Assembly (NCBI GenBank): GCA_040766535.1
Contig: JAXGQG010000010.1
Span: forward strand, 2,491 to 66,490
Source: Dehalococcoidia bacterium
Lineage (GTDB): Bacteria > Chloroflexota > Dehalococcoidia > GIF9 > AB-539-J10
DNA length: 64,000 nt
Direction of reading: 5' to 3'
Shown here: positions 1,028 to 45,867 of the stretch, piece by piece
Layout: each line of letters begins with the position of its first letter
Numbering within the stretch: position 1 is the first letter of the stretch
Notes under the pieces: generated by a model
The model's input: the letters and a program-made list of their open reading frames with translations, nothing else
The model's database searches: none
Told to the model about the DNA's origin: nothing
Program-made: the position numbers and the translations under genes

Positions 1028-1377
1028 TGGTGGAGGCGGGGGAGGGTTGAACTCCCCGTCCAGAAAAGGGTTGCCAGAATGTGCTACAGGCTTAGTCGGT
1101 CGCCAATTCGTCGCATGACCATCGTCCACCGACCGAGTCAGGCCACGCCATCCAGCTTGTCTTATCCAGGTCTCGCCGGCCCAAACCCGGAGCACCCCGG
1201 CATTCTCACGCCCACTCCCGACCCACCGGGGAGAGATCGGGGTGGACGCGCGACCTTAACTAGGCCGCGACGGGAACTAGATCGTTCTCGTTTATTGTTT
1301 GCCACCTGTTTATTGAGGTGGATGGCACCTCAGCCTGCAATCCTGTAGGCCCTCCCCTGTCGAACCCACGCGCCCCC
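1028..1377 (-). ncRNA. ssrA: tmRNA (SsrA), about 350 nt
   Basis: The minus strand reads 5' GGGGGCGCGTGGGTTCGACAGGGG ... GGACGGGGAGTTCAACCCTCCCCCGCCTCCACCA 3'. The acceptor stem GGGGGCG/CGCCTCC includes the G3:U wobble used as the alanine identity element. There is a T-arm GGGGAGTTCAACCCTCCCC and a terminal CCA. An internal tag frame ends ...GAT CTA GTT CCC GTC GCG GCC TAG. The gene lies 37 nt downstream of smpB on the same strand. Confidence 0.88.
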
Positions 1378-7078: not shown

Positions 7079-8014
7079 TCAGATGGAGCGAATCTCTTCA
7101 CGCATGAAACGGATATACGAGACCGCGAAGCATATCGCGCACAGAGCGATAATGGTGACCATCTGAGGCCAGACAAGAAGCAGACTGTCGTTCAACGGAA
7201 GGGGATTGGTCATCCTTCCTGAGTAGTAGCTCATGACATACAGCGCTGAGTTCATCGTGCCAACTTCCGGTGTCAGCAATCCGATGGTCGCCTCCCCGTA
7301 CAGGGTACAGGGTGATATACGGGCAAGGGTGCCCTCTATCGATGCGTTCCGCGCGAAAGCGTCCACACTCGAATTGGTGTCGACGGGAGCGGTAGCATCA
7401 GCGACGGCGCCCGCGATCGCCGCGACGAAGAAGAAGAAGATGATCCACACCGCCAGCGAAGCCAGCATGGACGTTGCCGTTCTACGGAAGAAGACCGAGA
7501 ACAGCACCGCAAGCGCGAGCCAGAACCCCGCGTACATGATGCTGATGAACACAAACGCGATCAGTCTCACGATCTCTTCGCCGTTCGGGGGGACGCCAAC
7601 GATACGGATGCCAAGTCCTGCAACGATTCCCACCACGCTGACGACCATGATAGACAGCACGGCGAGTCCGGCAAGGAACTTCCCGTTGATGATCGAATCC
7701 CGGTAGATGGGCTGCGACACGAGCCTGCTGAGATTCCCGGTGCTGCGCTCGTTATTCACCGCATCGAAACCGAGGGCGATTCCCACGATCGGTATGAACA
7801 GAGACAGGAAGAATAGGAACGAAGGCAGGTTTCCGCCAGAGGTAGTGAACACCTTCAGGAATATGAACTCAGTGCTGGTGTCAACCACTCCACGTATAGT
7901 CTGAATGGCGATGTAGATGGCGAACACCGCCGAAAGCAGCACAAGTGCGAACAGAATGATGAACCTCTTACTGCTGAGGTGATCGGCCAGTTCCTTGCGA
8001 AAAATCGCGTACAT
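7079..8014 (-). CDS. ABC-2 type transporter permease
   Basis: 311 aa with six hydrophobic segments, immediately downstream of the ABC ATPase. Confidence 0.8.
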   Translation of the reverse strand: MYAIFRKELADHLSSKRFIILFALVLLSAVFAIYIAIQTIRGVVDTSTEFIFLKVFTTSGGNLPSFLFFLSLFIPIVGIALGFDAVNNERSTGNLSRLVSQPIYRDSIINGKFLAGLAVLSIMVVSVVGIVAGLGIRIVGVPPNGEEIVRLIAFVFISIMYAGFWLALAVLFSVFFRRTATSMLASLAVWIIFFFFVAAIAGAVADATAPVDTNSSVDAFARNASIEGTLARISPCTLYGEATIGLLTPEVGTMNSALYVMSYYSGRMTNPLPLNDSLLLVWPQMVTIIALCAICFAVSYIRFMREEIRSI

Positions 8015-8017
8015 AGA

Positions 8018-8950
8018 TCAAGCCTCTTTCGAGAAGCGCTTGTATATCTTCTCCAGGTCGTACTCTTCGATCCTCATGCCGAGAAGAAGAGCACCGGCAT
8101 CGATGATCGCCCGCGACACCTGACCGCGAAGGTCCGACTCCGCCGTGACGATGAGCATCTTCTCAGCCACATCGACCTGCTGTACGCCTTTCACCTTGCG
8201 CACAGCGTCCACCACTGCCGGTCCAGGGTCATCAACCTCGGCCTCCATGCGGTACATACCGGCACCGGAAGTGCTTCGGCCCAGCAATTCTATCGGGCCG
8301 TCAGCCACGAGGCTGCCTTTCGACATTATGCCCACACGCGAGCACAGTTGCTGCACCTGAGGAAGCACATGCGAGCAGAAGATGACGGTGATGCCTCGCT
8401 TGCCCATGCCCGTGATGAGCTTGAGGATGTCGTCGATACCGTTGGGATCGATTCCGGTAGTCGCCTCGTCGAGGAACGCCAGTCGCGGTTCCTTCAGGAA
8501 TATCTCCGCGATGCCGAGTCGCTGCTTCATGCCACGCGAGAACGTGCTGACCGTCTGGTCCTTCACCTTCGCCAGCCCAACCAGACCGAGGACATCGTCG
8601 ATCCTGTGCTCGGATGCCGAGCGCGCCATACGATTCAGTTCGGCAATGAAGCGAAGGTTCTCACGAGCCGTCAACTCTTCGTAGAAGCCGACTCGCTCAG
8701 GCAGGTAACCCACCTGCCGTTTGACCTCAAGCGGATCGCGGGCTGGATCCTTGCCGCAGACCCTGACGGTGCCGGACGTCGGTTCAGTCAGGCCGAGCAA
8801 CATCAACAGGGTGGTCGTCTTCCCCGCGCCATTGGCGCCGAGGAATCCGAACATCTCGCCTTCCTCGATCTTGAGGTTCAGGCTATTGACGGCGGTGAAA
8901 TCGCCGTATTTCTTCGTCAGATCCGTGGCCTCCACCACGAGTTGTCCCAC
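8018..8950 (-). CDS. ABC transporter ATP-binding protein
   Basis: Walker A GANGAGKTT, signature SRGMKQRLG, Walker B LAFLDEATTGID. Confidence 0.93.
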   Translation of the reverse strand: MGQLVVEATDLTKKYGDFTAVNSLNLKIEEGEMFGFLGANGAGKTTTLLMLLGLTEPTSGTVRVCGKDPARDPLEVKRQVGYLPERVGFYEELTARENLRFIAELNRMARSASEHRIDDVLGLVGLAKVKDQTVSTFSRGMKQRLGIAEIFLKEPRLAFLDEATTGIDPNGIDDILKLITGMGKRGITVIFCSHVLPQVQQLCSRVGIMSKGSLVADGPIELLGRSTSGAGMYRMEAEVDDPGPAVVDAVRKVKGVQQVDVAEKMLIVTAESDLRGQVSRAIIDAGALLLGMRIEEYDLEKIYKRFSKEA

Positions 8951-8953
8951 GGC

Positions 8954-9898
8954 TTACCTCCGTCCGTATTTGCGAAATGCCCAGACCAGTCCACCAACTA
9001 CAACTACCAGAATCAGCGCGCCTATCAGGCCCCACGTGGTCTTCGTGGCCACTGAGACCCTGACAGCGAGGGATGGGGGCGAGGACGACAGAGCGGGCTC
9101 ACCCGTGTAGTTCAGAGTCACCATGTAGTCGCCTGGAACGGTGTTCGCGGGGGGGGTGATAGACACCTGGACCTCAACCTCATCACCCGGCGCCAGGCTC
9201 TCGACGCTCGCAGGATCAAACGCCACGCCCCAACTATCGCCGCTGACCACAGTGGGGGTGGTCGCCGACATCGTCACTTTGTCGAGTATGGCCGTGCCAC
9301 TGTTAGTGACCTTCACTCCGAAGGTGCTGGCCTTGCCAGCCGTTGTTTTCGTGTTCAGGCGTCCGCTTGTAGTCTCAGCGGACAGACCATACCGCGCAGT
9401 AATGGTGGCGGTCAGAGTCACCGCATCTTCAAGATCGCCGGACGAGACACGCAACTCAATGGGGTAGTCACCCGGCTCAGGATAGAGCCAGAATGGCGCG
9501 ACCGCGACCACCACGATGGGTGTATTCGTTGAGTACGGCTCCAGAAAGATAGCGGATATCTGGCTGTCCAGTTTGTACGTGGACTCCGCGATGTAGGTCA
9601 GCCAACCTGACGGTCCGGTCACGGCGAGATCGAAGGCCTTGCCCCGCGCCTCGCCGGAACGATAGGTGAACTCGACCTCGAATTTGAACGTCGAGTCAGC
9701 CGTCCCCGTCATCGCCGGGAACTTCGGATTTACCTGAAGAACCGTGGGGATCTCTGGTGTTGTAGTCTCTTCTTCCTCTTCCTGTGCCAGCAGTGTCACG
9801 GGCGCAAGCAGCGCGCCTCCGGCCAACGCAACACAGAGAAGAACAGAGATGAGCCTTATAAATCTGGGATTCCGCATTCGCTGTGACCTCCCGAGCAA
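8954..9898 (-). CDS. secreted, C-terminally anchored beta-rich protein (COG1470 / NEW3-like) associated with the ABC transporter
   Basis: Signal-like N-terminus (LISVLLCVALAGGALLAPV), acidic linker EEEEE, repeated beta-sandwich-like segments (ITARYGL, VTNSGTA, VSITPPANTVPGDY), and a C-terminal TM helix followed by RKYGRR. Family assignment is from memory of similar operons. Confidence 0.6.
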   Translation of the reverse strand: MLGRSQRMRNPRFIRLISVLLCVALAGGALLAPVTLLAQEEEEETTTPEIPTVLQVNPKFPAMTGTADSTFKFEVEFTYRSGEARGKAFDLAVTGPSGWLTYIAESTYKLDSQISAIFLEPYSTNTPIVVVAVAPFWLYPEPGDYPIELRVSSGDLEDAVTLTATITARYGLSAETTSGRLNTKTTAGKASTFGVKVTNSGTAILDKVTMSATTPTVVSGDSWGVAFDPASVESLAPGDEVEVQVSITPPANTVPGDYMVTLNYTGEPALSSSPPSLAVRVSVATKTTWGLIGALILVVVVGGLVWAFRKYGRR

Positions 9899-16706: not shown

Positions 16707-18677
16707 CTACGCCTTGTGCTTCAGGAGTTCGTCCACCACGCTCGGATCGGCGAGCGTGCTCGTGTCACCGAGGTTGCTGGTATCGCCTGCTGCGATCTTC
16801 ACCAGCACGCGGCGCATGATCTTGCCACTGCGCGTCTTGGGCAGACCATCGGCGAACTGAATCACGTCGGGAGTTGCGATCGGGCCGATCTCCTTGCGAA
16901 CGTGTGCAACAAGCTCTTTCTTCAGCGCGTCGGATTTCTCCTCGCCAGCATTCAACGTCACGTACGCGTAGATACCTTGTCCCTTCAACTCGTGAGGCAT
17001 ACCGACAACAGCGGCCTCAGCGACCTTGGGATGGGATACGAGGGCGCTCTCCACTTCAGCGGTGCCGATACGATGGCCGGACACATTGATGACGTCGTCG
17101 ATACGGCCCATCAACCAGTAGAAGCCGTCCTCGTCGCGGCGCGCGCCATCACCGGTCGTATAGACGCCAGGGAAGCGGACAAAGTAAGTGTCCTTGAAAC
17201 GATTCGGATCACCATATACCCGACGCATAAGGCCTGGCCACGGCTTCTTGATGACAAGATACCCGCCTTCATTCGTCTCGACGAGCGAACCATCTTCGCG
17301 TCGAATCTCCACATCCACGCCAGGGAACGGGAACGAGGCGGAGCCTGGTTTGAGCGACATCGCGCCGGGCAACGGAGTGATGAGGATGCCTCCGGTTTCA
17401 GTCTGCCACCAGGTGTCCACAATGGGACAGCGCGACTTGCCGACCACGGTGTAGTACCACATCCAGGCCTCGGGGTTGATTGGTTCGCCCACAGTGCCCA
17501 GGAGGCGCAGCGAGGACAGGTCGCGCTTGTTCACCCAGTCATCACCTTCGCGCATGAGTGCCCGCAATGCAGTGGGCGCGGTGTAGAAGATGTTGACACG
17601 GTACTTCTCGACGATCTCCCAGAACCGGTCAGGCTTCGGGAACGTGGGCACGCCCTCGAACATCAGGCTGGTCGCGCCGTTGGACATCGGTCCGTACACG
17701 ATGTAGCTGTGGCCAGTCACCCAGCCGATGTCAGCAGTGCACCAGAACGTATCCTCATCGCGATAGTCGAATACCCACTTGAAGGTCTGGTGTACGTAGA
17801 CCAGGTATCCGGCGGTGGTGTGCAGCACACCCTTGGGTTTGCCGGTGCTGCCGCTGGTGTACAGAATGAACAGCGGATCCTCGGCATCCATCCACTCCGG
17901 TTCGCACTCGGCACTGATGTCCGGCGCTGAGACCTCCTCATGCCACCAGTAGTCGCGTCCCTTGACCATCGGGACCTCACCACCAGCCCGCTTGACCACG
18001 AAGGCGCGCTTAACCGAGGGACTATCATCCATGGCAGCGTCCGCGTTCGCCTTGCTGCCGACGACCTTGCCGCTGCGGTAGTACCCGTCGCAACAGATCA
18101 CGGTACTGGACTCACAGTCCTTGATACGGTCGCGCAGCGCCTCCGCACTGAAGCCGCCGAACACGACGCTGTGAATGGCGCCTATCCGGGCACACGCGAG
18201 GAGTGCGATAGGCAGCTCGGGGATCATGGGAAGGTAGATGGACACGCGGTCGCCCTTCTTCACGCCATGCTTCTTCAACGCATTGGCGAAGCGGCAGACC
18301 TCGTAGTACATGTCCTGATAGGTGAACGTGCGGCGTTCTCCCTCTGGCTCGCCTTCCCAGACGATGGCGGCCTTGTTCTTCCGCCAGGTCTTCAGATGCC
18401 GATCCAGACAGTTGTAGCTGACATTCAGTTTGCCTCCCACGAACCATTCGTGCTTGGCATTCGCGAAGTCATCCACCACCACCTTATCCCACTTCTTGAA
18501 CCATTCGATCTGCTCGGCTCGCTCACCCCAGAAGCCAGCGGGATCAGAGACGGAGCGATCGTAGAGCTTCTTGTACTCTTCGAAGCTCTTGATATGGGCC
18601 TTTGCGCTGAACTCCGGATTCACCGGGAAGACCCGCTTCTCGTCCATCATGGACAACATGCCCTTGTCTGCAGCCAT
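16707..18677 (-). CDS. acs: acetyl-CoA synthetase (AMP-forming)
   Basis: Typical Acs sequence ([31 protein letters not shown]). ATG at 18677 is preceded by GGAGGGG. The upstream 55 codons of the ORF look non-coding. Confidence 0.95.
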
Positions 18678-18868
18678 AGAAAACCCCTCCGAATTGCGTA
18701 TTGGGAATCGCAGTACACAAGCGCCCGGCGGCGCTCGCATCAGATTGACCCAACGACCGAATGTAACATGGGGTTTTCCATTATGCAATTCACTCCATCG
18801 AAGCTCCAGAGAAGCACGTAATCCTGTGGTAGAATGCCGCAAGCCACAAAACCAACGGGAGGTTCTCC

Positions 18869-19744
18869 ATGGGCGCCGAGATTATTGACGGTCGGGCCAT
18901 CTCCGCAGCCATCCGGGAAGAAGTCAAGGCTCGCATCGCCAGGCTGGGCGGTACTGTCCCGGGACTCGCTGCCGTCATTGCGGGAGATGACCCGTCCGCT
19001 CAGTCCTACTTGAAGGGCATTGCCCGCGGTTGCGATGCCGTCGGCATCTTCCATGAGCAGTTCGTACTGCCCGCCGATGCTACGCAATCGCAGCTCGAGG
19101 AGACCCTGGAACGGCTGAACCGGAACGACCGCTTTCACGGCATCATCCTGCAGCTCCCCTTGCCACGGCACATCGATGCGCTACGCGCCGAGAGCGCCAT
19201 CGCTCCCGAGAAGGACATCGACGGCACCAATCCGGTGAGCGCGGGCAAGCTGCTCCTCGGAGAGAAGACCTTCTTCCCTTCCACTGCTCACGGAGTTCAG
19301 GAACTCCTGGTACGCAGCGGCCACAGCCCCGATGGTCTGCACGTGGTCATCTGTGGACGCAGCAACATCGTCGGCAAGCCGCTGGCGGCGATTCTCATGC
19401 AAAAGCAGCCTGGCGCCAATGCCACGGTGACGGTGTGCCATACGGGGACCACGAATATGTCCTCATTCACGAGAAGCGCGGACATCGTGGTGGCCGCCAT
19501 GGGACGGCCAGGATCAATCACAGCGGACATGGTGCGTCCCGGCGCGGTCGTGATCGATGTCGGCGTCAACCAGATAGATGACCCTGGCACGGGAAAACCG
19601 AGATTGGTCGGAGACGTCGACTTCGAGGCCGTGTCGGAGGTCGCGGGAGCCATCACCCCCGTCCCCGGCGGAACCGGACCGGTTACGGCAGCCATGCTGC
19701 TCAGCAATACCGTGCTCTCGGCCGAATGGCGCGCCGCGCACTGA
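18869..19744 (+). CDS. folD: FolD family methylene-THF dehydrogenase/methenyl-THF cyclohydrolase, paralog 1 (Rossmann motif intact, cyclohydrolase Lys motif apparently altered)
   Basis: [43 protein letters not shown]. The SxxYxxxK region reads [12 protein letters not shown]. Confidence 0.9.
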
Positions 19745-19768
19745 ACAGACAGCTCCAGGAGGCTCACG

Positions 19769-20644
19769 ATGCCGGGGATCATTCTTGACGGGCGCAGGAT
19801 GTCAGCAGAGATACGCGAGGAGTTGCGCAGCCGCGTCACGGCGCTGGGCGCTCGTGGCGTCACAGCGACGCTTTCCGGGTTCCTCGTCGGCGACGATCCG
19901 GGTTCGGCAAGTTATGTGAGACTCAAGGAGAAAGCCGCACACGACGTCGGTTTGAAAGCGGAGATGACCCACCTTCCCGGCGATTGTTCCCAGGATGAAC
20001 TCTGCAGGCAAGTGATTGAGTCGAGTCAAAGACACGACGTGCATGGCGTCTTCGTGCAACTCCCCCTGCCAGCGCACATGGACGAGAACGCGGTTCTCGC
20101 CCTCGTGGCCCCTGAGAAAGACATAGACGGCTTTAATCCGCTCAACGTGGGACGTGCATGGCTGGGGCAGGATTCCTTTGTGCCGGCCACCGCCGCCGGC
20201 ATCATCGAAATGCTGGAACGCGAAGGCCTCGCCGCACTGCAGCACCGGCACGCGGTAATCGTGAACACTGACAGCCTCGTGGGCAAGCCGACGGCTGCAC
20301 TGCTGTTGGAGCGATTCGGAGCGAACGTCACGATGTGTCATCCGGATTCACCCGAACTGGTGTACTGGAGCCGAACAGCCGACCTCCTGGTGGTGTCCGT
20401 TAACCGGCCGCGCTTCATCACGGCCGACATGGTGAAAGAGGGAGTCATCGCATTCGACTTCGGTTCCAACTACATCGAGGACGCGGCGGCGCCTCAGGGT
20501 CAGCGGCTGGTGGGCGATCTCGATTTCGATCCGGTACGAGCCAAGGCCCGCGCCATCACGCCCGTCCCGGGGGGACTCGGACCGATGACGGTCACCATGT
20601 TGCTTGCGCATACCGTGGTCGCGGCCGAGCGTCTATCTTCATGA
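19769..20644 (+). CDS. folD: FolD family paralog 2 (SxxYxxxK motif intact, NADP Rossmann motif degenerate)
   Basis: [36 protein letters not shown]. The GxSxxxG position reads VNTDSLVGKP, and VIDVGIN reads AFDFGSN. Confidence 0.85.
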   Translation: MPGIILDGRRMSAEIREELRSRVTALGARGVTATLSGFLVGDDPGSASYVRLKEKAAHDVGLKAEMTHLPGDCSQDELCRQVIESSQRHDVHGVFVQLPLPAHMDENAVLALVAPEKDIDGFNPLNVGRAWLGQDSFVPATAAGIIEMLEREGLAALQHRHAVIVNTDSLVGKPTAALLLERFGANVTMCHPDSPELVYWSRTADLLVVSVNRPRFITADMVKEGVIAFDFGSNYIEDAAAPQGQRLVGDLDFDPVRAKARAITPVPGGLGPMTVTMLLAHTVVAAERLSS

Positions 20645-20717: not shown

Positions 20718-20747
20718 TTGACAGCGGAAAACGCAGACAGCTACAAT
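20718..20747 (+). promoter_or_regulatory. sigma-70-type promoter for pyrG-tal-rho
   Basis: TTGACA (20718..20723), 18-nt spacer, TACAAT (20742..20747), about 78 nt upstream of the pyrG ATG. Confidence 0.7.
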
Positions 20748-25946: not shown

Positions 25947-26154
25947 TTCACTCCTTTATTGACGACCAACTGACCACACATTGTGCCGCATTAAGGCGGC
26001 ACCGAGCAACATCTCGCAGCCGCATGCGTTTGCCGGCAGCGTACGTTGCGCACATCATCAGAGGTGTCATACAATGGCCACCCGGAAGTCGATGCTGCGA
26101 TGCGGCCGCGCCGCCGCCGCGGCCTGTTCTAATCAGCCACCAGGAGGTCCACCC

Positions 26155-26796
26155 ATGGCGTGGGATCGTGCAGCCCTTGCGAATGCCGTGCAGAACGGAG
26201 ATGATGATGAAACGCTGGCAATGGTGAAGACCGCCCTTGCCGACGGTGTCCCAGCAATGGAGATACTGGACGGGGCGCTTGTGCCGGGTATCCAGCAGTT
26301 GGGCGAGTTGTTCAAGGATGGAGAAGTCTTCCTGCCCGAAGTACTCATCGCCTGCCGGGCTATGGACCGCGGAGTGGCCGAACTCAAGCCGTTTCTCACG
26401 ACGGGTGATGTACACCGCAAAGGGAAGATCATCATCGGGACAGTGGAGGGAGACCTCCACGACATCGGCAAGAACATCGTCCGACTCATGCTCGAATGCG
26501 GCGGATTCGAGGTAATCGACCTGGGTGTGGACGTACCGGCCAGCAGATTCGTGGACGCGGTCAAGGAACACTCGCCGGACATCGTCGCGATGTCCGCGCT
26601 GCTCACGATCACCATGACCAATATGCCGGAGGTCATCGCCGCTCTGGAACAGGCGGGGCTCAGGAAGAGCGTCAATGTCATGATCGGTGGAGCACCCATC
26701 ACACGCGAATACGCGGATCAGATCGGCGCCGAGGGCTTCGCCGAGGACTGCGCCTCCGCAGTTCAGGAAGCCGAGAGGCTCGCTATCCCGCGGTAG
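26155..26796 (+). CDS. corrinoid (cobalamin-binding) methyl-carrier protein
   Basis: B12-binding cap helices followed by GDLHDIGKNIV (DxHxxG), MSALLT (SxL) and MIGGAPI (GG). ATG at 26155 is preceded by AGGAGG. Confidence 0.88.
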   Translation: MAWDRAALANAVQNGDDDETLAMVKTALADGVPAMEILDGALVPGIQQLGELFKDGEVFLPEVLIACRAMDRGVAELKPFLTTGDVHRKGKIIIGTVEGDLHDIGKNIVRLMLECGGFEVIDLGVDVPASRFVDAVKEHSPDIVAMSALLTITMTNMPEVIAALEQAGLRKSVNVMIGGAPITREYADQIGAEGFAEDCASAVQEAERLAIPR

Positions 26797-26822
26797 CAGC
26801 GCGCCCACGACGGAGGCACAGC

Positions 26823-28007
26823 ATGACAGACTCATTGAGACAGCGGTTTCTGGACATATGCAGATTCAAACGCACGGGCGACCTTTGCCTCCTTGCGCCA
26901 TGGTTGAACGACTTCTGGATGGAGACTCCAGACGTGTGGGTGAGCCAGGGGGCGCCCGCCGAGTTGGCCGACCCCCGCACGTTGCGCGAGTATTTCGAGT
27001 TCGAGCACATCCGCGTTCTGAGAGAGGTCCAGACGGGCCTGTTCATGGACAAACGCCTCGACGTGCTTGGCAGGAACTACGTGTACGCCATCCCACCCAT
27101 CATTCCCACCTACGAGATCCGGATGCTGGGTGAGGACGAGCACACACTGTCCCTCGTCAACGAAGGCGGCCAGGTTGTGCGCATCGACAAGCGTGACCCC
27201 CAGAAGATGCCGATGTACCTTGACCATCCGGTCAAGGATTGGGACACATGGAAGGAGTACAAGAAGCGCCTTGATCCCTCTTCCCCCGAACGGTTCCCGG
27301 CAGACTGGCAGGCGTACGCCGCCAGGATGAACGCGAAGGATGAGCCCCTGCTGCTCAACGTGGGCAGCTTCTTCGGCTTCCTACGCGAATGGATGGGCCT
27401 CGAGCCATTCCTCTTTGCTCTACACGACGAACCCGCGCTGATAGAAGACATGATGGACACGCTCTGTGAGATGGAGTCCGTCTGCATACACCGCGCCATG
27501 GAGAGCGTGCGCGTGGATGCCGCCATGTTCTGGGAGGATATGGCCTTCAAGACGGGACCACTACTCTCACCGAAGATGTTCCGGCAGTTCATGATGCCGC
27601 GCTACAAGGTCATCACGGACCTTCTCCGGTCGAAGGGCGTCGACATCATCTTCGTCGATAGCGACGGGGCGCTGAACCAGCTCATTCCGTTGTGGCTCGA
27701 GAGCGGTGTGAACTTCTTCTGGCCGCTCGAGTGCGCAGCCGGAAACGATGCGGTTGAACTGCGCAAGAAGTACGGCAAGGACGCCATCTTGGGTGGCAAC
27801 ATCGACAAGCGGGCACTTCTCAAGGGGAAGGACGTCATCCGGCAGGAGGTCATGTCCAAGGTGCCCTATCTGCTGGAGACGGGCGGCTACTTCCCGTCCA
27901 TCGACCACTTCGTGCCACCGGATGTGCCGTTCGAGAACTACGTTTACTTCATCAACACTCTGCGCGAGGTAGCCGGGCTGCCACCGCTTAAGGGGCGCTC
28001 CGGCTAG
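26823..28007 (+). CDS. uroporphyrinogen decarboxylase (URO-D) family protein, probable corrinoid-dependent methyltransferase
   Basis: About 394 aa. URO-D/MtaA-like C-terminal half (AAMFWEDMAFKTGPLLSPKMFRQFMMPRY, IIFVDSDGA, GGNIDKRALL). ATG at 26823 is preceded by GGAGG. The 109 upstream codons of the ORF overlap the corrinoid gene and look like an artefact. Confidence 0.75.
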   Translation: MTDSLRQRFLDICRFKRTGDLCLLAPWLNDFWMETPDVWVSQGAPAELADPRTLREYFEFEHIRVLREVQTGLFMDKRLDVLGRNYVYAIPPIIPTYEIRMLGEDEHTLSLVNEGGQVVRIDKRDPQKMPMYLDHPVKDWDTWKEYKKRLDPSSPERFPADWQAYAARMNAKDEPLLLNVGSFFGFLREWMGLEPFLFALHDEPALIEDMMDTLCEMESVCIHRAMESVRVDAAMFWEDMAFKTGPLLSPKMFRQFMMPRYKVITDLLRSKGVDIIFVDSDGALNQLIPLWLESGVNFFWPLECAAGNDAVELRKKYGKDAILGGNIDKRALLKGKDVIRQEVMSKVPYLLETGGYFPSIDHFVPPDVPFENYVYFINTLREVAGLPPLKGRSG

Positions 28008-28887: not shown

Positions 28888-29969
28888 AGCGTCTTCCACA
28901 CCGGCTTCGCTCTCGGATACGAGCCTAGAACGCGCAGGAAGAGGCAGTAATGCCGCACGCTCTCAAGCGCCTCAGCGAACTGCGGATCGAGGCTGTGTCC
29001 CTCAAAGTCCAGATAGAAGTTGTACTCCCATGGTTTCTGGCGGGTGGGCCGAGACTCGATCTTCGTGAGATTCACTCCCCTCTCGGCGAGCACCCGGAGC
29101 GCCGAATACAGTGCTCCAGGCTCGTGCCGCACCGAGAACACCACCGAGGTCTTATCCATGCCGCTCGGGGGCACATCGCGCCTCGAAAGCACGAAGAACC
29201 GCGTGTAGTTGTTCTTGCTGTCCTCGATGCCCGTGGCCACCACATGCATCCCATACAGTTCCGCGGCCCGCGCGCTCGCTACCGCAGCCACGTCCATCGC
29301 CCCTTGCTCGCTCACCATCTTCACACTCCCCGCCGTGTCATACGCCGGAATGAGTTCACAACCGAGGTGCGACAGAAACTCCCGGCACTGGCCAAGCGCC
29401 TGTGGGTGCGAGTAGACGCGCCGGACATCGCCGAGCGCTACTCCCGGCCGTGCTATCAGGCAGTGCACGACTCGAAGGGCGGTCTCACCACACACGCGAA
29501 CATGATGTTCCAGGAAGAGATCGTATACCCTGCTGATGCTGCCTTCGGATGAGTTCTCCACCGGGACAATGCCGAAGCTGGTGAGTTCATCCTCAACCGC
29601 GGCGAACACACCGTCGAAGCTCTCCACAGGACAGGTGGTAGCAGACCGGCCAAAGAACTCGAGCGCAGCCTGTTCGCTGAAGGCGCCAGGTTCGCCCTGG
29701 AAGGCCACGGTTGTATGTTGAACCGCCCTGGCAACTTCGATGATCCTCTCATACACTCGCTCAAGGTCGCGTTCATCCACGTCCTGCTCGACCCCCAGCG
29801 CCCGCACCTTGTCGAGTACCTTTCTCTCTCTCGCGACATCGAGCACCGGCAGTCCGGCGGCCTGCTTCGCCTCTCCGATCTCCCGGGCAATCTTCAACCG
29901 CTCAGCCAATAGGCGCACAAGCTCCCGGTCAGTCGCATCGATTCTTGCTCGCAGATCATCTATGGACAT
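28884..29969 (-). CDS. pheA: bifunctional chorismate mutase / prephenate dehydratase (P-protein) with ACT domain
   Basis: CM_2 N-terminus (LRARIDATDRELVRLLAERLKIAREIG), PDT domain (VAFQGEPGAFSE, YTRF), and C-terminal ACT (SRPTRQKPWEYNFYLDFEGH). ATG at 29969 is preceded by GAGGGTGA. Confidence 0.92.
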   Translation of the reverse strand: MSIDDLRARIDATDRELVRLLAERLKIAREIGEAKQAAGLPVLDVARERKVLDKVRALGVEQDVDERDLERVYERIIEVARAVQHTTVAFQGEPGAFSEQAALEFFGRSATTCPVESFDGVFAAVEDELTSFGIVPVENSSEGSISRVYDLFLEHHVRVCGETALRVVHCLIARPGVALGDVRRVYSHPQALGQCREFLSHLGCELIPAYDTAGSVKMVSEQGAMDVAAVASARAAELYGMHVVATGIEDSKNNYTRFFVLSRRDVPPSGMDKTSVVFSVRHEPGALYSALRVLAERGVNLTKIESRPTRQKPWEYNFYLDFEGHSLDPQFAEALESVRHYCLFLRVLGSYPRAKPVWKTL

Positions 29970-31057
29970 GTCATCACCCTCGGTATCAGCCCACTTTGCA
30001 GAACCAGGTCGCACAATGCCGCCGCGACCATCGCCTCAACCACCACCACCGCACGAGGCACGATGCACGCATCGTGACGGCCACTCACCGCCAGTTCAGT
30101 ATCAGTCCCCTTGTCGACGTCCACCGTTCGCTGCCTGATGGCGATGGACGGAGTGGGTTTGATCGCCACGCGCAGCACCAGCGGCATTCCGTTCGTCAAT
30201 CCTCCCAGTACTCCGCCCGAGTGATTCGTGAGCGTGACCACCTGGCCATCACGCACTGCAAAGGCATCGTTTGCCTCGGAGCCCTTCATACCCGTCAGTG
30301 CGAACCCATCGCCGAACTCGACTCCCTTAACAGCAGGTATCGAGAACGCAGCTCGCGCAATCTCGCTTTCCACGCTCGCGAACACCGGTTCCCCGATGCC
30401 CGGCGGCAACCCGCGTGCCACACACTCGATCACCCCTCCAACGCTGTCGCCCCGCTTCCTCGCAGCCTCGATCACCTCAACCATCCGTACGCCACTGGGC
30501 TCATCGCAGCAGGAAACCAGCGTGGCGCTGCGGCGTTCGCGTATCAGTTCGGGAGCACACGGGGGTGCAAGGACACCACCAATCGCCACTGTGTGGGCGT
30601 CAACTTCCGTGCCGATGTTGTGCAGTATGACCCGAGCGACGGCCCCAGCCATTACAAAGCCAGCGGTGATACGTCCCGAGAAGCGGCCGCCGCCACGCGG
30701 GTCGCCATAGTTCCCGTACTTGATGCGCGCAGGATAGTCAGCATGGCCGGGCCGCGGCGTACGCATGAAATCGGTGTACGCCGTGGCATCTGTATTCGTG
30801 TTCTCAACCATCAGGCAGATGGGAGCCCCGGTTGTCACGCCATCGCGGAGGCCGGCGAGGATACGAACCTCATCCGGCTCGCGTCTCGGGGTTGCGCCCG
30901 GCTGGCCGGCGGCGCTGCGCCGCGCAAGGTCCCGTTGCAGCTCAGCCACATCCAGCCGCAACCCCGCCGGGCATCCATCGATCACCACTCCCTCACACGG
31001 CCCGTGGCTCTCACCGAAGCTCGTGATCCGAAAGAGTGTCCCGAGAGTACTACTCAT
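29960..31057 (-). CDS. aroC: chorismate synthase
   Basis: MSSTLGTLFRITSFGESHGP, RPGHADY, GGGRFSGR. Confidence 0.95.
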   Translation of the reverse strand: MSSTLGTLFRITSFGESHGPCEGVVIDGCPAGLRLDVAELQRDLARRSAAGQPGATPRREPDEVRILAGLRDGVTTGAPICLMVENTNTDATAYTDFMRTPRPGHADYPARIKYGNYGDPRGGGRFSGRITAGFVMAGAVARVILHNIGTEVDAHTVAIGGVLAPPCAPELIRERRSATLVSCCDEPSGVRMVEVIEAARKRGDSVGGVIECVARGLPPGIGEPVFASVESEIARAAFSIPAVKGVEFGDGFALTGMKGSEANDAFAVRDGQVVTLTNHSGGVLGGLTNGMPLVLRVAIKPTPSIAIRQRTVDVDKGTDTELAVSGRHDACIVPRAVVVVEAMVAAALCDLVLQSGLIPRVMTCP

Positions 31058-32312
31058 GCAGCATCACCTCCACGCCAAGGCCGGCAAGCGTCTCCCAGAA
31101 CGCCGGGTATGTCTTCGTCACGCTTTCAGCCGCGTCAACCGTCACGTCACCAGTCACCGCTCCGAGGATGCCTAAGGCCATCGCGATGCGGTGATCTCCG
31201 GCGGATGATACTGCTCCACCGTGCAGCACACCTCCACATACTCGCATCCGGTCACTCTCTGCGTCCACCTCCACGCCGAGACAAGCGAGTCCTTCGGCCA
31301 TGGCGGCCACGCGATCCGACTCCTTATCACGGGCTCTGGCTATCCCGGTGAGCGTCGTTACTCCGTTTGCCGCGGCTCCAAGAGCACACGCCACAGGCAG
31401 CAGGTCGATGCAGCCAGAGACATCATAGTCAAACGGACAGAGCTTTGCTCGCGTAACCACCACTTCGCCCCCAGCAGCATTCACGGACGCCCCGGCCTTC
31501 TTCAATATGTCGAGTACCGCAACGTCGGCCTGCAGACTCTCAGCCGAAAGCTCCCGGACGCGAACCTCTCCAGCAAGCGCCCCCAGTGCCAGCACAGCGG
31601 CGGCGCCGGACCAGTCTCCTTCCACCGCAAAGCGCGTCGCGCGATAGCCACCCTCCGCCACATGGAACGTGCGGCCACAATCGAGCAGCGCAACCTCGGC
31701 GCCAAAACAGCGCATGCACTTCAGCGTCATCTCGACATACTGCTCCGAGACGATCGGCGAGGACAACTGTAGCGTCAAACCACCCGGCACGCGCGGCCCG
31801 CATAGAAGCAGCGCGGAGACAAACTGTGAACTGACGTCCCCCTGCAGCACGACATGGCCGCACGGGTGGTTCGCCCCGCGAACAGTGAGTATGCCGGAGC
31901 CGGCATCGAAGTCGCATTCGGCCCCCATCTGCCGTATACCCCGCAGCAATGGCTCCAAAGGTCGTCGCGCCAGCGACGGGGCACAACGCAGTACCGTCAC
32001 GCCGGGAACGGTCGCTGCGACCGCGGCAAGAAAGCGGAACGTGGCCGCCGATTCGCGGCACCACAGCGGGGATACCGCAGCGTGAAGGCCCTCACCTCGA
32101 ACGGTTACGCCACCGTTCACATCCTTGACGACAGCACCAAGCCCCGCAATCGATTCGAAGACAGCTGTGGCGTCGTCGGACTCGAGTGGCGCCTCAATCA
32201 GGCTTTCACCCCTCGCCAGTGCTGCACAGACTGCAGCGCGTATGGTGTAGCTCTTTGAACCTGGCACACGTACGGAGCCATGTACGACGCTCCGTGCGAC
32301 GGTGGCCCTCAC
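31050..32312 (-). CDS. aroA: 3-phosphoshikimate 1-carboxyvinyltransferase (EPSP synthase)
   Basis: 420 aa (VPGSKSYTIRA, DHRIAMA). Confidence 0.94.
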   Translation of the reverse strand: MRATVARSVVHGSVRVPGSKSYTIRAAVCAALARGESLIEAPLESDDATAVFESIAGLGAVVKDVNGGVTVRGEGLHAAVSPLWCRESAATFRFLAAVAATVPGVTVLRCAPSLARRPLEPLLRGIRQMGAECDFDAGSGILTVRGANHPCGHVVLQGDVSSQFVSALLLCGPRVPGGLTLQLSSPIVSEQYVEMTLKCMRCFGAEVALLDCGRTFHVAEGGYRATRFAVEGDWSGAAAVLALGALAGEVRVRELSAESLQADVAVLDILKKAGASVNAAGGEVVVTRAKLCPFDYDVSGCIDLLPVACALGAAANGVTTLTGIARARDKESDRVAAMAEGLACLGVEVDAESDRMRVCGGVLHGGAVSSAGDHRIAMALGILGAVTGDVTVDAAESVTKTYPAFWETLAGLGVEVMLHE

Positions 32313-32827
32313 AGCTGTCCCACTCGCTTCTGAATCTTGCGCACGATCTGTTCCACCAGGAGCCCATCCGTATCCACTATGATATCCGCCGCCGCCTCAT
32401 ACACCGGCCGGCGGCGCGCCATCAGTTCGGTCACCTGTTGCTCCCTGTCCGTTCCCTGCAACAACGGTCTGACGGCTGACTGTGGGCCAAGCCGTCGCAG
32501 TACTGTCTCCACCGACGCATCCAGGTACACCAGCACTGACGTCTCCTTCAGCGCGGTGACGTTCTCTGCACGCAGCACCACACCCCCCCCGCACGCAATC
32601 ACGGCACCGTGCGCCCGTGCCGCCTCCCTCACAGCCACAGCTTCAAGGTCTCGGAAGTGGGCCTCCCCGAAACGCGCGAAGATGTCAGCGATTGACATAC
32701 CCGCGTTGTGCTCAACAAGTGCATCGGTCTCGATATACGTCTTCCGCAGCCGCACAGATAGTGCCCGTCCCACGGTGGACTTGCCCGCCCCCATGAACCC
32801 CACCAGGGCGATGTTACTCCGTTTCAC
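32309..32827 (-). CDS. aroK: shikimate kinase
   Basis: NIALVGFMGAGKSTVG P-loop. GTG at 32827 is preceded by GGAGAG. The upstream part of the ORF overlaps aroE. Confidence 0.9.
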   Translation of the reverse strand: MKRSNIALVGFMGAGKSTVGRALSVRLRKTYIETDALVEHNAGMSIADIFARFGEAHFRDLEAVAVREAARAHGAVIACGGGVVLRAENVTALKETSVLVYLDASVETVLRRLGPQSAVRPLLQGTDREQQVTELMARRRPVYEAAADIIVDTDGLLVEQIVRKIQKRVGQL

Positions 32828-33677
32828 GATCCAACTCTCCGAGCACTGCGGCGCGCATGACGTCCACGGGCGCCTCGACGCCGGTCCAGAGCTCGAACGC
32901 AGCCGCGCCCTGGCGCACAAGCATTTCAACGCCGTCTACGGTGACGGCTCCGAGTGCGGCCGTGGTGCGCAGCAGCATCGTCTCGCGAGGGTTGTACACG
33001 GTATCACACACGGGCAGGTCACGACGCAGCACCTCACGGGGACATGGCATCTCCATCTCCATCGGGTGCATGCCAACGCTTGTCGTGTTCACGAGCAGTG
33101 CCGCATCGCTCAACCGGGAGACCATCACGTCCGAAGACAACAGACCATGCAGAACGTGCGCTCCCGAAGCCGTGGCGACGTCGCGCGCGAGAGAGGCAGC
33201 GCGCTCAACGTTGCGATTCAACACGGTGACTCGCGCACCCGCCCCTACCAGGGCAAAGACTACTGCCCTTGCTGCACCTCCCGCTCCAAGCACAACCACG
33301 TTCATTCCTCTGGCGTCGATGCCGTGCGACCGCAATCCGTGCAGAAAGCCCTGTGCGTCCGTGTTGTAGCCGCGCAAACAACCGGAGTCGTTCACCACGG
33401 TGTTCACTGCCCCGATTCGGGCGGCCTGCTCGTCGACCTCGTCGAGGCTACGCATTATGTCGATTTTGTGCGGTACGGTAACGTTCAGGCCGCGAATACC
33501 GAGTGCCCGCATGGCCTGAGCGCAGGATGCAGCCGTTCCTCGTGGAGCACGCCAGGCCACGTAGACGTAGTCAAGGACTGCCTTGTCAAATGCTGCGTTC
33601 TGCATGACCGGAGAGAGCGTGTGGGCAACAGGGTCTCCGATGATCCCGCATAGGCGTGTTGTACCGGTTATCCGCAT
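32814..33677 (-). CDS. aroE: shikimate 5-dehydrogenase
   Basis: GIIGDPVAHTLSPVMQNAAF, NVTVPHK, GYNTD, VLGAGGAARA. Confidence 0.94.
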   Translation of the reverse strand: MRITGTTRLCGIIGDPVAHTLSPVMQNAAFDKAVLDYVYVAWRAPRGTAASCAQAMRALGIRGLNVTVPHKIDIMRSLDEVDEQAARIGAVNTVVNDSGCLRGYNTDAQGFLHGLRSHGIDARGMNVVVLGAGGAARAVVFALVGAGARVTVLNRNVERAASLARDVATASGAHVLHGLLSSDVMVSRLSDAALLVNTTSVGMHPMEMEMPCPREVLRRDLPVCDTVYNPRETMLLRTTAALGAVTVDGVEMLVRQGAAAFELWTGVEAPVDVMRAAVLGELDRETE

Positions 33678-35421: not shown

Positions 35422-36477
35422 TCAGTTCTTCTTGACCAGGTCACGAAGTCGACGGCAGGCATCGATGATCTCTTTGAGTTCGTCGGGCGTCACCATCTGT
35501 GGTCCGTCGACGAGGGCCTCGGAGGGATCGTAGTGGGCTTCGATCATGAGGCCATCGGCGCCGGCCGCCACCGCCGCGCAGCTCATCGAGAATATCAGGT
35601 CGCGCCTTCCCGTGCCATGGCTGGGATCAACAATGACCGGCAGATACGTCTCGTTATGGATTACGGGCACGGCGGCGAGATCAAGCGTGTACCGGGTGAA
35701 GCTCTTTCCCTTGCCCATCGGCACAATCCCGCGCTCACACAGGATGATGTCCTTGTTTCCCTCTGCGGCGATGTACTCACTGAAGGAGAGCAACTCCTCG
35801 ATGCTGGCGCCGAAATGGCGCTTGAGCAGCACCGGCTTATGCTGCCGGGCCACCGCGACCAGCAGATCCTGGTCATACATGTTCCGGGCGCCGATGTGCA
35901 TGATGTCCACGTACTTCGCGACCAGTTCCACCATGGATTCGCCACGAACCTCGGTGACCACCGGCATATCGAAGGCATCGCCGGCTTCTCTCATCCAGTG
36001 GAGCGCCTCCTCAGCCTCCTCCACCCCCGATGCCCCCAAGCCCTGGAAGGCGTGGACCGAGCTTCTGGGCTTGAAGACACCTCCACGGAGTACGTGGGCG
36101 CCTGCCTTCTTCACCTCCTCCGCAATGCGCATGAGTTGTTTGCGGCTCTCCACTGCACAGGGACCGGCGATAATGACCGGCTCGCCGTTCCCAAGGCGGA
36201 CGTTTCCGATCTTGACCGTCTTGTGGGCGCCCGGCTCACCGAAGAACCGCGCGTAGTCGCGACTGATGAGCTTGTACGGCGCCTCAACCATATTTGCCTC
36301 TTTGACCCCGGGCAACGTGGCAATACGATCGAAGGCGAGCTTGCGTTCGTCGCCAACAGGCCCGATAACGGTAATGTACTCACCTCTCGAGATATCGGCG
36401 CGCAACCCGCTCGCCTCGATCTCGGCCACCACCCTCCGGATGTCCTCCTCAGTCGCGTCCGTCTTCATGATGATCAT
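35422..36477 (-). CDS. aroF: DAHP synthase, type I-beta with N-terminal ferredoxin-like/ACT-type regulatory domain
   Basis: About 75-aa N-terminal domain (TEEDIRRVVAEIEASGLRADISRGEYITVIG), then a KDSA/AroG-I-beta barrel (IIAGPCAVES, GADGLMIEAH). Confidence 0.92.
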   Translation of the reverse strand: MIIMKTDATEEDIRRVVAEIEASGLRADISRGEYITVIGPVGDERKLAFDRIATLPGVKEANMVEAPYKLISRDYARFFGEPGAHKTVKIGNVRLGNGEPVIIAGPCAVESRKQLMRIAEEVKKAGAHVLRGGVFKPRSSVHAFQGLGASGVEEAEEALHWMREAGDAFDMPVVTEVRGESMVELVAKYVDIMHIGARNMYDQDLLVAVARQHKPVLLKRHFGASIEELLSFSEYIAAEGNKDIILCERGIVPMGKGKSFTRYTLDLAAVPVIHNETYLPVIVDPSHGTGRRDLIFSMSCAAVAAGADGLMIEAHYDPSEALVDGPQMVTPDELKEIIDACRRLRDLVKKN

Positions 36478-36536
36478 GGTGTCTCCTTCTCTCTCGCTCG
36501 CTGCCTCGTTGTACTTTCTCTGGCCGCAGTCATCAC

Positions 36537-36572
36537 AAAAAGAAAGGACCCTCCCACCGGGAGGGTCCTTTC
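36537..36572 (-). terminator. intrinsic terminator (attenuator) in the aro operon leader
   Basis: Minus strand: GAAAGGACCCTCCC ggt GGGAGGGTCCTTTC followed by TTTTT. It lies between the leader ORF stop (36595) and the DAHP synthase ATG (36477). Confidence 0.8.
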
Positions 36573-36594
36573 TTCTTTGGCGCTTACTGTTGAA

Positions 36595-36675
36595 CTACAC
36601 GACGTGACCGCTCCCGGGCGTAACGCAGGGATAAAAGTAATACCAATACGCGCCGAACGACCGGAAGCTACTCAT
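36595..36675 (-). CDS. aro operon leader peptide MSSFRSFGAYWYYFYPCVTPGSGHVV (26 codons)
   Basis: ATG AGT AGC TTC CGG TCG TTC GGC GCG TAT TGG TAT TAC TTT TAT CCC TGC GTT ACG CCC GGG AGC GGT CAC GTC GTG TAG. Eight of 26 codons are Phe/Tyr/Trp, six of them consecutive. It sits between the promoter and the terminator. No strong SD. Confidence 0.65.
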   Translation of the reverse strand: MSSFRSFGAYWYYFYPCVTPGSGHVV

Positions 36676-36704
36676 ATCAACACATGTACGTCGAGATGAA
36701 GGCG

Positions 36705-39041: not shown

Positions 39042-39098
39042 GAGCCCTGTGGCGCTAGAATTAGGGCGTGTTCTCACGTGCGTAGCGAGGGGGTGAAC

Positions 39099-40661
<1,563 letters not shown>

Positions 40662-41979: not shown

Positions 41980-42061
41980 GGCAACACCTGTCGATACGAG
42001 AATCGTGGCGATGTGAACCGGGAGGCAGTACTTGCAGGGTGTCGCCACCCTGCCAGGCGCA

Positions 42062-44824: not shown

Positions 44825-45851
<1,027 letters not shown>

Positions 45852-45867
45852 TGTTCCTAGATCCTCC

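Follow-up and report, generated by a model that had tools for sequence, protein, structure and literature searches.

FolD, a central enzyme of folate one-carbon (C1) metabolism and the Wood-Ljungdahl pathway, is a textbook example of bifunctionality in which the active sites overlap. Here we examine two neighboring FolD-family genes, P1 and P2, in a 64-kb stretch of DNA from an uncultured Dehalococcoidia bacterium (the whole stretch is referred to below as the window). We place at roughly 0.55 the probability that the two reactions of FolD are divided between P1 and P2 as a conserved two-gene module of a Dehalococcoidia clade. A natural, conserved separation onto two paralogs would, if true, be a clean subfunctionalization of a bifunctional enzyme.

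Canonical FolDs and the dehydrogenase/cyclohydrolase domain of MTHFD (E. coli FolD, 1B0A and 5O28; human DC301, 1A4I and 1DIB; MTHFD2, 5TC4) share with P1 and P2 the two-domain fold and the folate pocket at 35 to 48% identity. They carry the lysine (Lys) of the Y-x-x-x-K motif and the GxSxxxG/R-S-H cofactor site in one polypeptide and are homodimers (PMC3338484), whereas P1 and P2 have one of these sets each. The carolacton-resistant K54N variant of E. coli FolD (EcFolD) retains ∼19% of dehydrogenase activity, with cyclohydrolase activity below detection (PMC5688156). It is a direct experimental analogue of P1, in that loss of the Lys alone yields a dehydrogenase-only enzyme, but this variant arose in the laboratory from a bifunctional enzyme and has no partner, and P1 has additional fixed changes in the pocket. 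In MTHFD1L, an N-terminal FolD-homologous region is retained though catalytically dead (PMC11064299); that domain is inactive for both reactions and fused to a synthetase, whereas P1 and P2 each keep one complete site.

Yeast Mtd1 is a monofunctional nicotinamide adenine dinucleotide (NAD)-dependent methylene-tetrahydrofolate (methylene-THF) dehydrogenase according to titles cited in PMC11064299. Going by those titles, it (1EDZ) combines the FolD fold with dehydrogenase activity in the absence of a cyclohydrolase, and it is a distant match to both P1 and P2 (E ∼1e-8), but it is very divergent, eukaryotic, and stand-alone and has no cyclohydrolase-only partner paralog. FchA belongs to a protein family other than FolD and is by assigned function a dedicated methenyl-THF cyclohydrolase, whereas the P2 candidate is a FolD paralog with a full Rossmann domain. 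As with P1 and P2, the cyclohydrolase and dehydrogenase steps lie on two adjacent genes in the Wood-Ljungdahl clusters of the acetogens T. kivui, A. woodii, and T. acetatoxydans, where FchA is encoded next to FolD (PMC4320612, PMC3584212).

The closest precedent is the two-gene FolD of Wood-Ljungdahl Firmicutes, loosely termed “two subunits” in papers and mechanistically undescribed. The tandem pair comprises the only MTHFD/cyclohydrolase genes that the cited papers name in Thermacetogenium phaeum and Syntrophaceticus schinkii, and in both it is assigned to the THF-dependent Wood-Ljungdahl pathway (PMC6895022, PMC12674515, PMC5113046). The S. schinkii genes are listed as SSCH_630016/17 (PMC5113046), both T. 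phaeum proteins are abundant under all growth conditions tested (PMC12674515), and T. phaeum methylene-THF dehydrogenase activity is 10,000-fold higher with NAD+ than with its phosphate, NADP+ (PMC6895022). No paper noting a complementary residue pattern was found in literature searches in which “folD” was swamped by the word “fold.”

Both window proteins belong to the FolD/MTHFD fold superfamily: each matches PF00763 (catalytic domain) and PF02882 (Rossmann domain) end to end, with E values of 1e-32 to 4e-60, and the two are 44% identical. A preliminary description of this DNA had reported two FolD-family genes of 291 amino acids (aa) lying 24 nucleotides (nt) apart, one without the catalytic Lys and the other with an altered dinucleotide loop. 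The open reading frames (ORFs) are exactly as it stated, and every motif that it quoted is present (VIDVGVN in P1; GSASYVRLKEKA, VNTDSLVGKP, VNRPR, and AFDFGSN in P2). In every public record seen, both proteins are labeled “bifunctional FolD” or a generic THF dehydrogenase/cyclohydrolase domain protein, and reconstructions consequently count two bifunctional enzymes where one split enzyme may exist.

Residue states were read from alignments to solved FolD/MTHFD structures (HMMER) and from alignments with E. coli and human sequences (MAFFT); the numbering of the latter reference sequences agrees with the residue lists of PMC3368264. We tabulated 13 NADP, 7 folate, and 8 Lys-environment positions from the human DC301 lists of PMC3368264 in 121 P1-family, 121 P2-family, and 128 canonical sequences. 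In both alignments, Ile51 of P1 falls on the catalytic Lys (K54 in E. coli, K56 in human), which bears out the claim that P1 lacks this residue. The position is Ile in 100% of the P1 family (121/121) and Lys in 100% of the P2 family, and the Y-x-x-x-K motif of bifunctional FolD is thus absent from P1 and present in P2 (K53). The other six folate residues (Y52, Q100, L101, D125, G273, and G276) are kept in 100% of P1-family and at least 98% of P2-family sequences, and the P2 family also keeps the hydrophobic Lys environment. The 120 closest relatives of P1 all share S-Y-L-[RK]-[GS]-I and retain GRSNIVGKP. Lys49 of P1 was considered as a displaced catalytic Lys and rejected, since the Y+2 position is R/K in canonical FolDs and R in many P1 relatives.

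The cofactor site has the opposite distribution. G172, R173, and S174 of the dinucleotide loop, each present in 100% of canonical sequences, are kept in 100% of the P1 family, as are V236, T148, I176, G178, H196, A215, and G237; G217 is also kept, S197 is Thr in 100%, and I238 is Val in 100%. In P2, N166-T167-D168 aligns with G172-R173-S174, as had been claimed. Across the P2 family, G172 is Asn (87%), R173 is Val/Thr/Ala, S174 is Asp (100%), S197 is Pro (88%; P192 in the window P2), V236 is Phe (100%), I238 is Ser/Ala/Thr, and G217 is Asn/Asp; 6 to 7 cofactor-contact positions are changed, and G178, T148, G237, and mostly H196 are retained. The GxSxxxG loop and the R173/H196/S197 triad for the 2′-phosphate are accordingly found in P1 (with Thr for Ser) but not in P2. 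All 120 relatives of P2 carry Y-x-x-L-K-E-K, V-[NGS]-x-D-[NS]-L-V-G-K-P, [ND]-[RKQ]-P, and D-F-G-x-N. The preliminary description spoke of complementary loss: the states themselves are fixed in 120 relatives each, but the change in P2 is a conserved remodeling (V-N-x-D-[NS]-L-V-G-K-P) and not random loss. Neither protein resembles a dead pseudodomain of the MTHFD1L type, in which both residue sets are lost from one polypeptide, since each paralog keeps one complete set at a level of at least 98%.

The same contrast emerged from an unbiased scan covering every column (87) with at least 90% conservation in canonical FolDs, 11 NADP positions being among those scored. Of the 7 fixed shifts in P1, 6 fall in the catalytic domain and none affects an NADP position; of the 9 in P2, 6 fall in the Rossmann domain and 4 affect NADP positions (Fisher p = 0.04 and 0.013). 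The observation is real and exceeds chance, and at the level of sequence it strongly indicates complementary specialization of P1 and P2. Further fixed pocket changes in P1 (V53L, L98I, F127T, V275T, and M278V) may compensate for the loss of the Lys.

We predict the following. (i) P1, with a complete NAD(P) site and folate pocket and Ile in place of the general acid/base Lys, would convert 5,10-methylene-THF to 5,10-methenyl-THF, or the reverse, without ring opening; it very probably lacks cyclohydrolase activity, and we are fairly confident that it is an active dehydrogenase. (ii) P2, which keeps the Tyr, Lys, Gln, Leu, Asp, and PGGxGP loop of the folate/cyclohydrolase site, would interconvert methenyl-THF and 10-formyl-THF. 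Its replaced dinucleotide loop (GRS to N-x-D), 2′-phosphate ligands (R173 and S197), and nicotinamide-pocket residues (V236F and I238S/A) would preclude hydride transfer. That P2 is an active cyclohydrolase is likely, if slightly less so than the dehydrogenase activity of P1, and that it lacks dehydrogenase activity is a little less likely again. (iii) The two genes would be cotranscribed and often translationally coupled. (iv) The products would assemble as a P1·P2 heterodimer with a single site each for dehydrogenase and cyclohydrolase.

Several considerations weigh against this division of labor. The putative loss of cofactor binding by P2 is its weakest link: G172N by itself is found in 6 FolD clusters that are otherwise canonical (V-N-R-S), which weakens the Gly-to-Asn change as proof of lost binding, and D168 of P2 adjoins the adenosine ribose/2′-phosphate site, so that a switch to NAD+ is conceivable instead. 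The catalytic Lys may also assist hydride transfer (PMC3368264), and because EcFolD K54N loses ∼80% of its dehydrogenase activity, dehydrogenation by P1 may be slow if nothing compensates for the missing Lys. Cyclohydrolysis also proceeds spontaneously (PMC5688156), which weakens the need for a dedicated enzyme. Finally, Moorella has an additional canonical FolD, Moth_1516, located beside NfnAB at another locus (PMC4320612).

If the cofactor were switched and not lost, P2 would be a bifunctional FolD that binds NAD+ rather than NADP+, P1 would be an accessory NADP-linked dehydrogenase, and the pair would provide two cofactor specificities. The clearest losses in P2 are indeed the three 2′-phosphate ligands, as expected for such a switch, and the retention of G178, T148, G237, and mostly H196 is in keeping with it. 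The remodeling nevertheless goes beyond the phosphate site, with Asn (87%) at the first loop Gly, Asp (100%) at the loop Ser, and Asn/Asp at G217. With Phe at V236 in all P2 sequences, three bulkier or charged side chains would enter the cofactor cleft. In addition, none of the other FolD clusters among 150 representatives has Asp at 174, and the P2 family has no conserved acidic residue at the end of β2, where position 198 is D/S/F/L/T. We therefore regard an NAD+-binding bifunctional P2 as improbable and retain the division of reactions between P1 and P2 as the preferred reading.

The residue pattern is matched by strict pairing of the genes. An exhaustive search of 1.84 billion cluster representatives found the N-x-D loop in essentially one full-length 50%-identity cluster, and the P2 type is therefore a narrow clade. 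Among the best 80 loci of a one-genome-per-species scan, a P2 orthologue occurs in 7 metagenome-assembled genomes of Dehalococcoidia/Chloroflexi (L001 to L007), with a P1 orthologue immediately upstream in 7/7, and the remaining 73 have a single canonical FolD. A P2-type gene is also present on 25 metagenome contigs, and P1 lies upstream in all 16 that have enough upstream sequence. In total, P1 is followed by P2 in 23/23 informative loci (7 genomes and 16 metagenome contigs). The window pair and 23 related loci have the arrangement of the two-gene FolD of Wood-Ljungdahl Firmicutes (Tph_c16310/16320 type), with a Lys-less gene with an intact GxS loop upstream and, on the same strand, a Lys-containing gene with an altered cofactor site downstream.

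All of these tandems fall within Dehalococcoidia/Chloroflexi, and the gene order is invariant. The spacing of the two genes ranges from −4 to +36 nt in 23 of 26 pairs and from 150 to 229 nt in the other three, and start/stop overlaps (−4, −1, and 0) occur in several lineages. The window order Mfd-Acs-P1-P2-PyrG-Tal-Rho is common to close relatives on contigs of 0.75 and 1.5 Mb, whereas in a 57%-identical relative the pair adjoins a 2-oxoacid:ferredoxin oxidoreductase instead. The pair was also seen on contigs of 0.3 to 1.5 Mb whose flanks vary, so that only the pair itself is conserved. In one subclade (L005 and L089 to L094), the upstream Lys-less partner has a classical GxGxxG motif with Asp at the end of β2 (VGGAGKQGKT…CDYKT, DVGVS), and the two genes either overlap or lie almost end to end (−4 to +2 nt). 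GxGxxG with Asp is an NAD-type signature, which suggests a switch to NAD+ in the upstream partner of this subclade; the pattern fits a role for P1 as the redox subunit, with a cofactor site under active selection.

P1 and P2 could divide the labor without forming a complex, as two homodimers acting in sequence whose operon serves only coexpression. The homodimeric state of canonical FolDs (PMC3338484) favors this, as do the three pairs with spacers of 150 nt or more and a Thermincola pair whose members are separated by NfnAB-like genes. It has to be set against the invariant order of P1 before P2 and against gene overlaps of a kind typical of stoichiometric complexes, and it offers no obvious reason for the full and highly constrained Rossmann domain of P2. 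We consider separate homodimers unlikely, though still the most serious competitor of the P1·P2 heterodimer.

Constraint was compared by using P1 and P2 orthologues from the same 22 nonredundant genomes, so that divergence times are equal. P1 orthologues share a mean pairwise identity of 0.647 and P2 orthologues one of 0.630. Within P2, conservation of the Rossmann domain (0.644) is no lower than that of the catalytic N-terminal domain (0.620; 0.619 for the latter domain of P1). The segments that form the FolD dimer interface, α5, α7, and β6 of the Rossmann domain (PMC3338484, PMC3368264), are the most conserved of all, at 0.72 in P1 and 0.69 in P2, which is equally compatible with homodimers. 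The AlphaFold2 model of P2 is confident (predicted local distance difference test [pLDDT], 94.8; predicted template modeling [TM] score, 0.90), and Foldseek superimposes it on FolD/MTHFD structures with TM scores of 0.90 to 0.96 and root mean square deviations of 1.2 to 2 Å. The P1 monomer, modeled from a shallow alignment, reaches a pLDDT of 76.4 and falls below 50 at residues 126 to 146 and 165 to 183, which are the α5/α7 interface helices; this low confidence may reflect either the shallow alignment or the need for a partner. A heterodimer would most simply account for the continued constraint on the putatively redox-dead Rossmann domain of P2 and for interface segments that surpass all others in conservation. 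Operon structure and interface conservation make it a tentative proposal, with chances slightly short of even. If the enzyme is heteromeric, it would be a case of transition from homodimer to heterodimer.

A constrained P2 could also be a noncatalytic pseudoenzyme that scaffolds or regulates P1, with the cyclohydrolase step left to spontaneous reaction or another enzyme. MTHFD1L offers a precedent for a dead FolD-like domain (PMC11064299), spontaneous cyclohydrolysis is documented (PMC5688156), and the P1 monomer model is weak exactly at the interface helices. A scaffold, however, would have no need of Y52, K56, Q100, L101, D125, G273, and G276, which P2 keeps at 98 to 100% together with the hydrophobic Lys environment, and the catalytic domain of P2 evolves as slowly as that of P1. 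This makes a pseudoenzyme quite improbable. That the genes are decaying duplicates, or an assembly or annotation artifact, is effectively refuted. Both proteins do fall below every cutoff of the NCBIfam FolD models (equivalog and subfamily; best scores of 315 bits for P1 and 280 bits for P2 against cutoffs of 333 to 559). On the other side, hundreds of relatives from many independent samples share the same fixed substitutions, and both frames are intact and under strong purifying selection. P2 as a decaying copy was rejected on the grounds of the same-genome rate test and its confident model.

The pair does not appear to be young. In neighbor-joining trees (60 bootstraps), the P2 family was recovered in 59/60 replicates and the core P1 family in 60/60, but the two were sisters in at most 5/60. 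The similarity of P1 to P2 is 0.48, compared with 0.48 to 0.51 to canonical FolDs. A recent tandem duplication was therefore rejected, and since P1 and P2 are no more alike mutually than either is to canonical FolDs, we read the pair as an old association of two separate lineages. The preliminary description had suggested that a bifunctional enzyme was split in two: its complementary specialization is backed by the residue states and the pairing, whereas an origin by local duplication is contradicted by the tree.

A second FolD tandem was found through odd Rossmann variants in a nusB-folD-folD-xseA context, in Moorella thermoacetica, T. phaeum, S. schinkii, and Thermincola spp. The named pairs (Tph_c16310-16320 of T. 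phaeum, SSCH_630016/17 of S. schinkii, and OIQ58235.1 and its neighbor in Moorella) stand for this type, and the tandems at L172, L174, L177, and L178 are all annotated as “bifunctional FolD.” In 5/5 lineages, the upstream protein combines K56Q, D125E, and L101M with an intact G-H-S-x-I-x-G loop, and the downstream protein keeps the seven folate residues and carries R173W/H/F, I176E, S197P, A215E, V236T, and I238S/A. Gene order and logic are those of P1-P2, but the proteins are ∼35 to 43% identical to P1/P2, the Lys is replaced by Gln (plus D125E) and not by Ile, the downstream protein mostly keeps GxSxxxG (the N-x-D remodeling of P2 being more drastic), and the spacers are 84 to 111 nt, at what is a nusB-folD-xseA housekeeping locus. 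P2 is slightly closer to the downstream (identity, 0.39 to 0.43) than to the upstream (0.34 to 0.35) Firmicutes proteins, and P1 is equidistant from the two. P2 groups with P0384-like variants in 15/60 neighbor-joining replicates and in 2/60 with the diagnostic columns masked, which gives no tree support for orthology.

The Firmicutes tandem also bears on the possibility that P2 is an NAD+-binding bifunctional enzyme. The downstream gene, with its GxSxxxG and H-P-D/E (position 198 is D/E, with Ala in one lineage, L172), and the strong preference of T. phaeum extract activity for NAD+ (PMC6895022) speak for it. The upstream proteins, however, also lack the 2′-phosphate ligands and would explain the NAD+ activity equally. 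A division of labor between the two proteins would bear on whether NADH or NADPH is used and on how flux is controlled at the methenyl-THF node in the abundant subsurface Dehalococcoidia, acetogens, and syntrophic acetate oxidizers. It is possible, though we would not presume it, that two ancient paralogs, one with a dehydrogenase-only and one with a cyclohydrolase-only site, form an obligate heterodimer of the same architecture in Dehalococcoidia and in thermophilic Wood-Ljungdahl Firmicutes, with the Rossmann domain of P2 kept as a dimerization and possibly allosteric partner. In that case, what is called “bifunctional FolD” in model acetogens and syntrophs such as T. phaeum and S. schinkii would be an enzyme of two subunits between which the labor is divided, and as cultured Moorella, T. 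phaeum, and Thermincola carry the analogous pair, the proposal is testable.

In one Thermincola locus (L176), FolD paralogs flank a pair of NfnAB-like genes, which encode a DHODB_Fe-S_bind/NAD_binding_1 protein and a Fer4_20/Pyr_redox_2 protein. Together with Moth_1516 of Moorella, this hints at a recurring link between FolD and transhydrogenase.

Neofunctionalization has also to be weighed, in that the pair might use another pterin or C1 carrier or another substrate, or the Lys-less P1 might be a target variant insensitive to carolacton-type compounds. K54 anchors carolacton, and the residual dehydrogenase of K54N is insensitive to it (PMC5688156); the fixed pocket changes F127T, V275T, and M278V of P1 and the occurrence of related Rossmann-variant FolDs beside an F420-type Mtd homologue or in a purine operon could be taken in the same sense. 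The folate-binding residues other than the Lys are nonetheless invariant in both families, the surroundings of the pair gave no sign of a biosynthetic or resistance context, and the analogous pairs of T. phaeum and S. schinkii have been placed in the THF-dependent Wood-Ljungdahl pathway. We judge neofunctionalization very improbable, and divided FolD reactions remain the preferred account.

Variant FolDs are not confined to these tandems. The catalytic Lys is replaced by I, L, Q, V, A, or N in about 15 of the 150 best FolD clusters at 50% identity, including P0300, P0302, P0325, P0375, P0388, P0371, P0372, P0377, P0369, and P0382, and nearly all of the Lys-less clusters keep the GxS loop (P0269 and P0318 are exceptions). 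P0325, the only one with usable flanks, is stand-alone between carD and osmC. Lys-less “FolD” proteins are thus recurrent and probably misannotated as bifunctional. Two Lys-containing homologues have Rossmann variants. One (P0292; VGMGDLVVKP…CDPKV) directly follows FTHFS and is convergent with a PF01993 MTD homologue of the F420-dependent methylene-tetrahydromethanopterin dehydrogenase type, and the other (P0347; VGCGTMVGRP…VYPDA) lies inside purH-purD-purT-[FolD-like]-purB-purA.

Table 1. Positions of P1, P2, and other features, in the window or in the related loci named
Feature	Locus	Position	Strand	Basis or remark
P1, FolD-family paralog, 291 aa	Window	18869..19744	+	ORF, PF00763 + PF02882, site table
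P2, FolD-family paralog, 291 aa	Window	19769..20644	+	ORF, PF00763 + PF02882, site table, AlphaFold2, Foldseek
Shine-Dalgarno GGGAGG of P1	Window	18857..18862	+	Sequence reading; 6 nt 5′ of ATG at 18869
Spacer between P1 and P2	Window	19745..19768	+	24 nt after TGA; carries P2 Shine-Dalgarno
Shine-Dalgarno AGGAGG of P2	Window	19757-19762	+	Sequence reading; 6 nt 5′ of ATG
Ile51 codon of P1, at catalytic Lys position (Ec K54/Hs K56)	Window	19019..19021	+	Alignments
G163-R164-S165 codons of P1, intact G-R-S of GxSxxxG loop	Window	19355..19363	+	GRSNIVGKP in 120/120 relatives
Lys53 codon of P2, catalytic Lys retained	Window	19925..19927	+	K in 100% of P2 family
N166-T167-D168 codons of P2, at G172-R173-S174 of dinucleotide loop	Window	20264..20272	+	Alignments
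P1 residues 126-146	Window	∼19244-19306		Model pLDDT <50
P1 residues 165-183	Window	∼19361-19417		Model pLDDT <50
Sigma-70-like promoter TTGACA-18-TACAAT, 5′ of pyrG	Window	20718..20747	+	11/12; consensus match only
tmRNA gene, full length	Window	1028-1377	−	Rfam RF00023, 135 bits
Acetyl-CoA synthetase ORF	Window	16707-18842	−	From first TTG
B12-binding corrinoid protein	Window	25981-26796	+
URO-D-family (MtaA/MtbA-like) methyltransferase	Window	∼26800-28007	+
SerA (3-phosphoglycerate dehydrogenase)	Window	39078-40658	+
DUF1015 protein	Window	40678-42048	−
Long ORF	Window	7979-9052		No Pfam match
Long ORF	Window	29945-31348		No Pfam match
Long ORF	Window	32337-33650		No Pfam match
Long ORF	Window	35533-36696		No Pfam match
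Long ORF	Window	45361-46716		No Pfam match
Upstream GxGxxG partner	L005	5126-5992
Upstream GxGxxG partner	L089	1736-2587
Upstream GxGxxG partner	L090	7141-7992
Upstream GxGxxG partner	L093	1718-2569
Upstream GxGxxG partner	L094	355-1206
Firmicutes tandem, Moorella thermoacetica GCA_001875325.1	L174	5047-5916 and 6001-6858
Firmicutes tandem	L178	3039-4858
Firmicutes tandem	L177	4037-5855
Firmicutes tandem	L172	5020-6855
FolD paralogs, Thermincola	L176	1747-2610 and 5001-5855
NfnAB-like gene pair, Thermincola	L176	2752-4973
Lys-less FolD, P0325	L166	6001-6867
FTHFS	L169	1371-3041
FolD homologue, P0292	L169	3053-3904
PF01993 MTD homologue	L169	3901-4725	−
FolD homologue, P0347	L171	4885-5736

In the window, P1 and P2 look like a two-gene unit because no promoter- or terminator-like site was seen in the spacer between them and a promoter-like site follows only after P2 (Table 1); the latter, 5′ of pyrG, marks the downstream boundary of the unit. 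The two genes are in the same frame, with starts 900 nt apart, but a fusion by stop-codon read-through was rejected, as the relative frame differs (0/1/2) across related loci. A search with Rfam found no riboswitch or other RNA element 5′ of the pair; the sole match in the window above the gathering score is a tmRNA (transfer-messenger RNA) gene elsewhere. No third canonical FolD or FchA is encoded within the window. The neighbors of the pair (Mfd, Acs, PyrG, Tal, and Rho) are housekeeping genes and are replaced by others in a more distant relative, and no link to a Wood-Ljungdahl/C1 gene cluster was found.

The acetyl-CoA synthetase ORF, when read from its first TTG, has an N-terminal extension of ∼60 to 70 aa that is unlike Acs; the true start of acs is probably further downstream, and the divergent acs-P1 intergenic region would then be ∼200 nt. 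Several long ORFs of the window have no Pfam match, and some of them may be spurious, as the ORF map is greedy. Downstream of the pair, a corrinoid protein gene is followed by a URO-D-family methyltransferase gene and adjoined by a thiolase gene, and the corrinoid protein-methyltransferase arrangement is also kept in L161 and L163; a corrinoid-dependent methyl-transfer system near the folate genes is possible. Further along the window, the genes for SerA and the DUF1015 protein are convergent.

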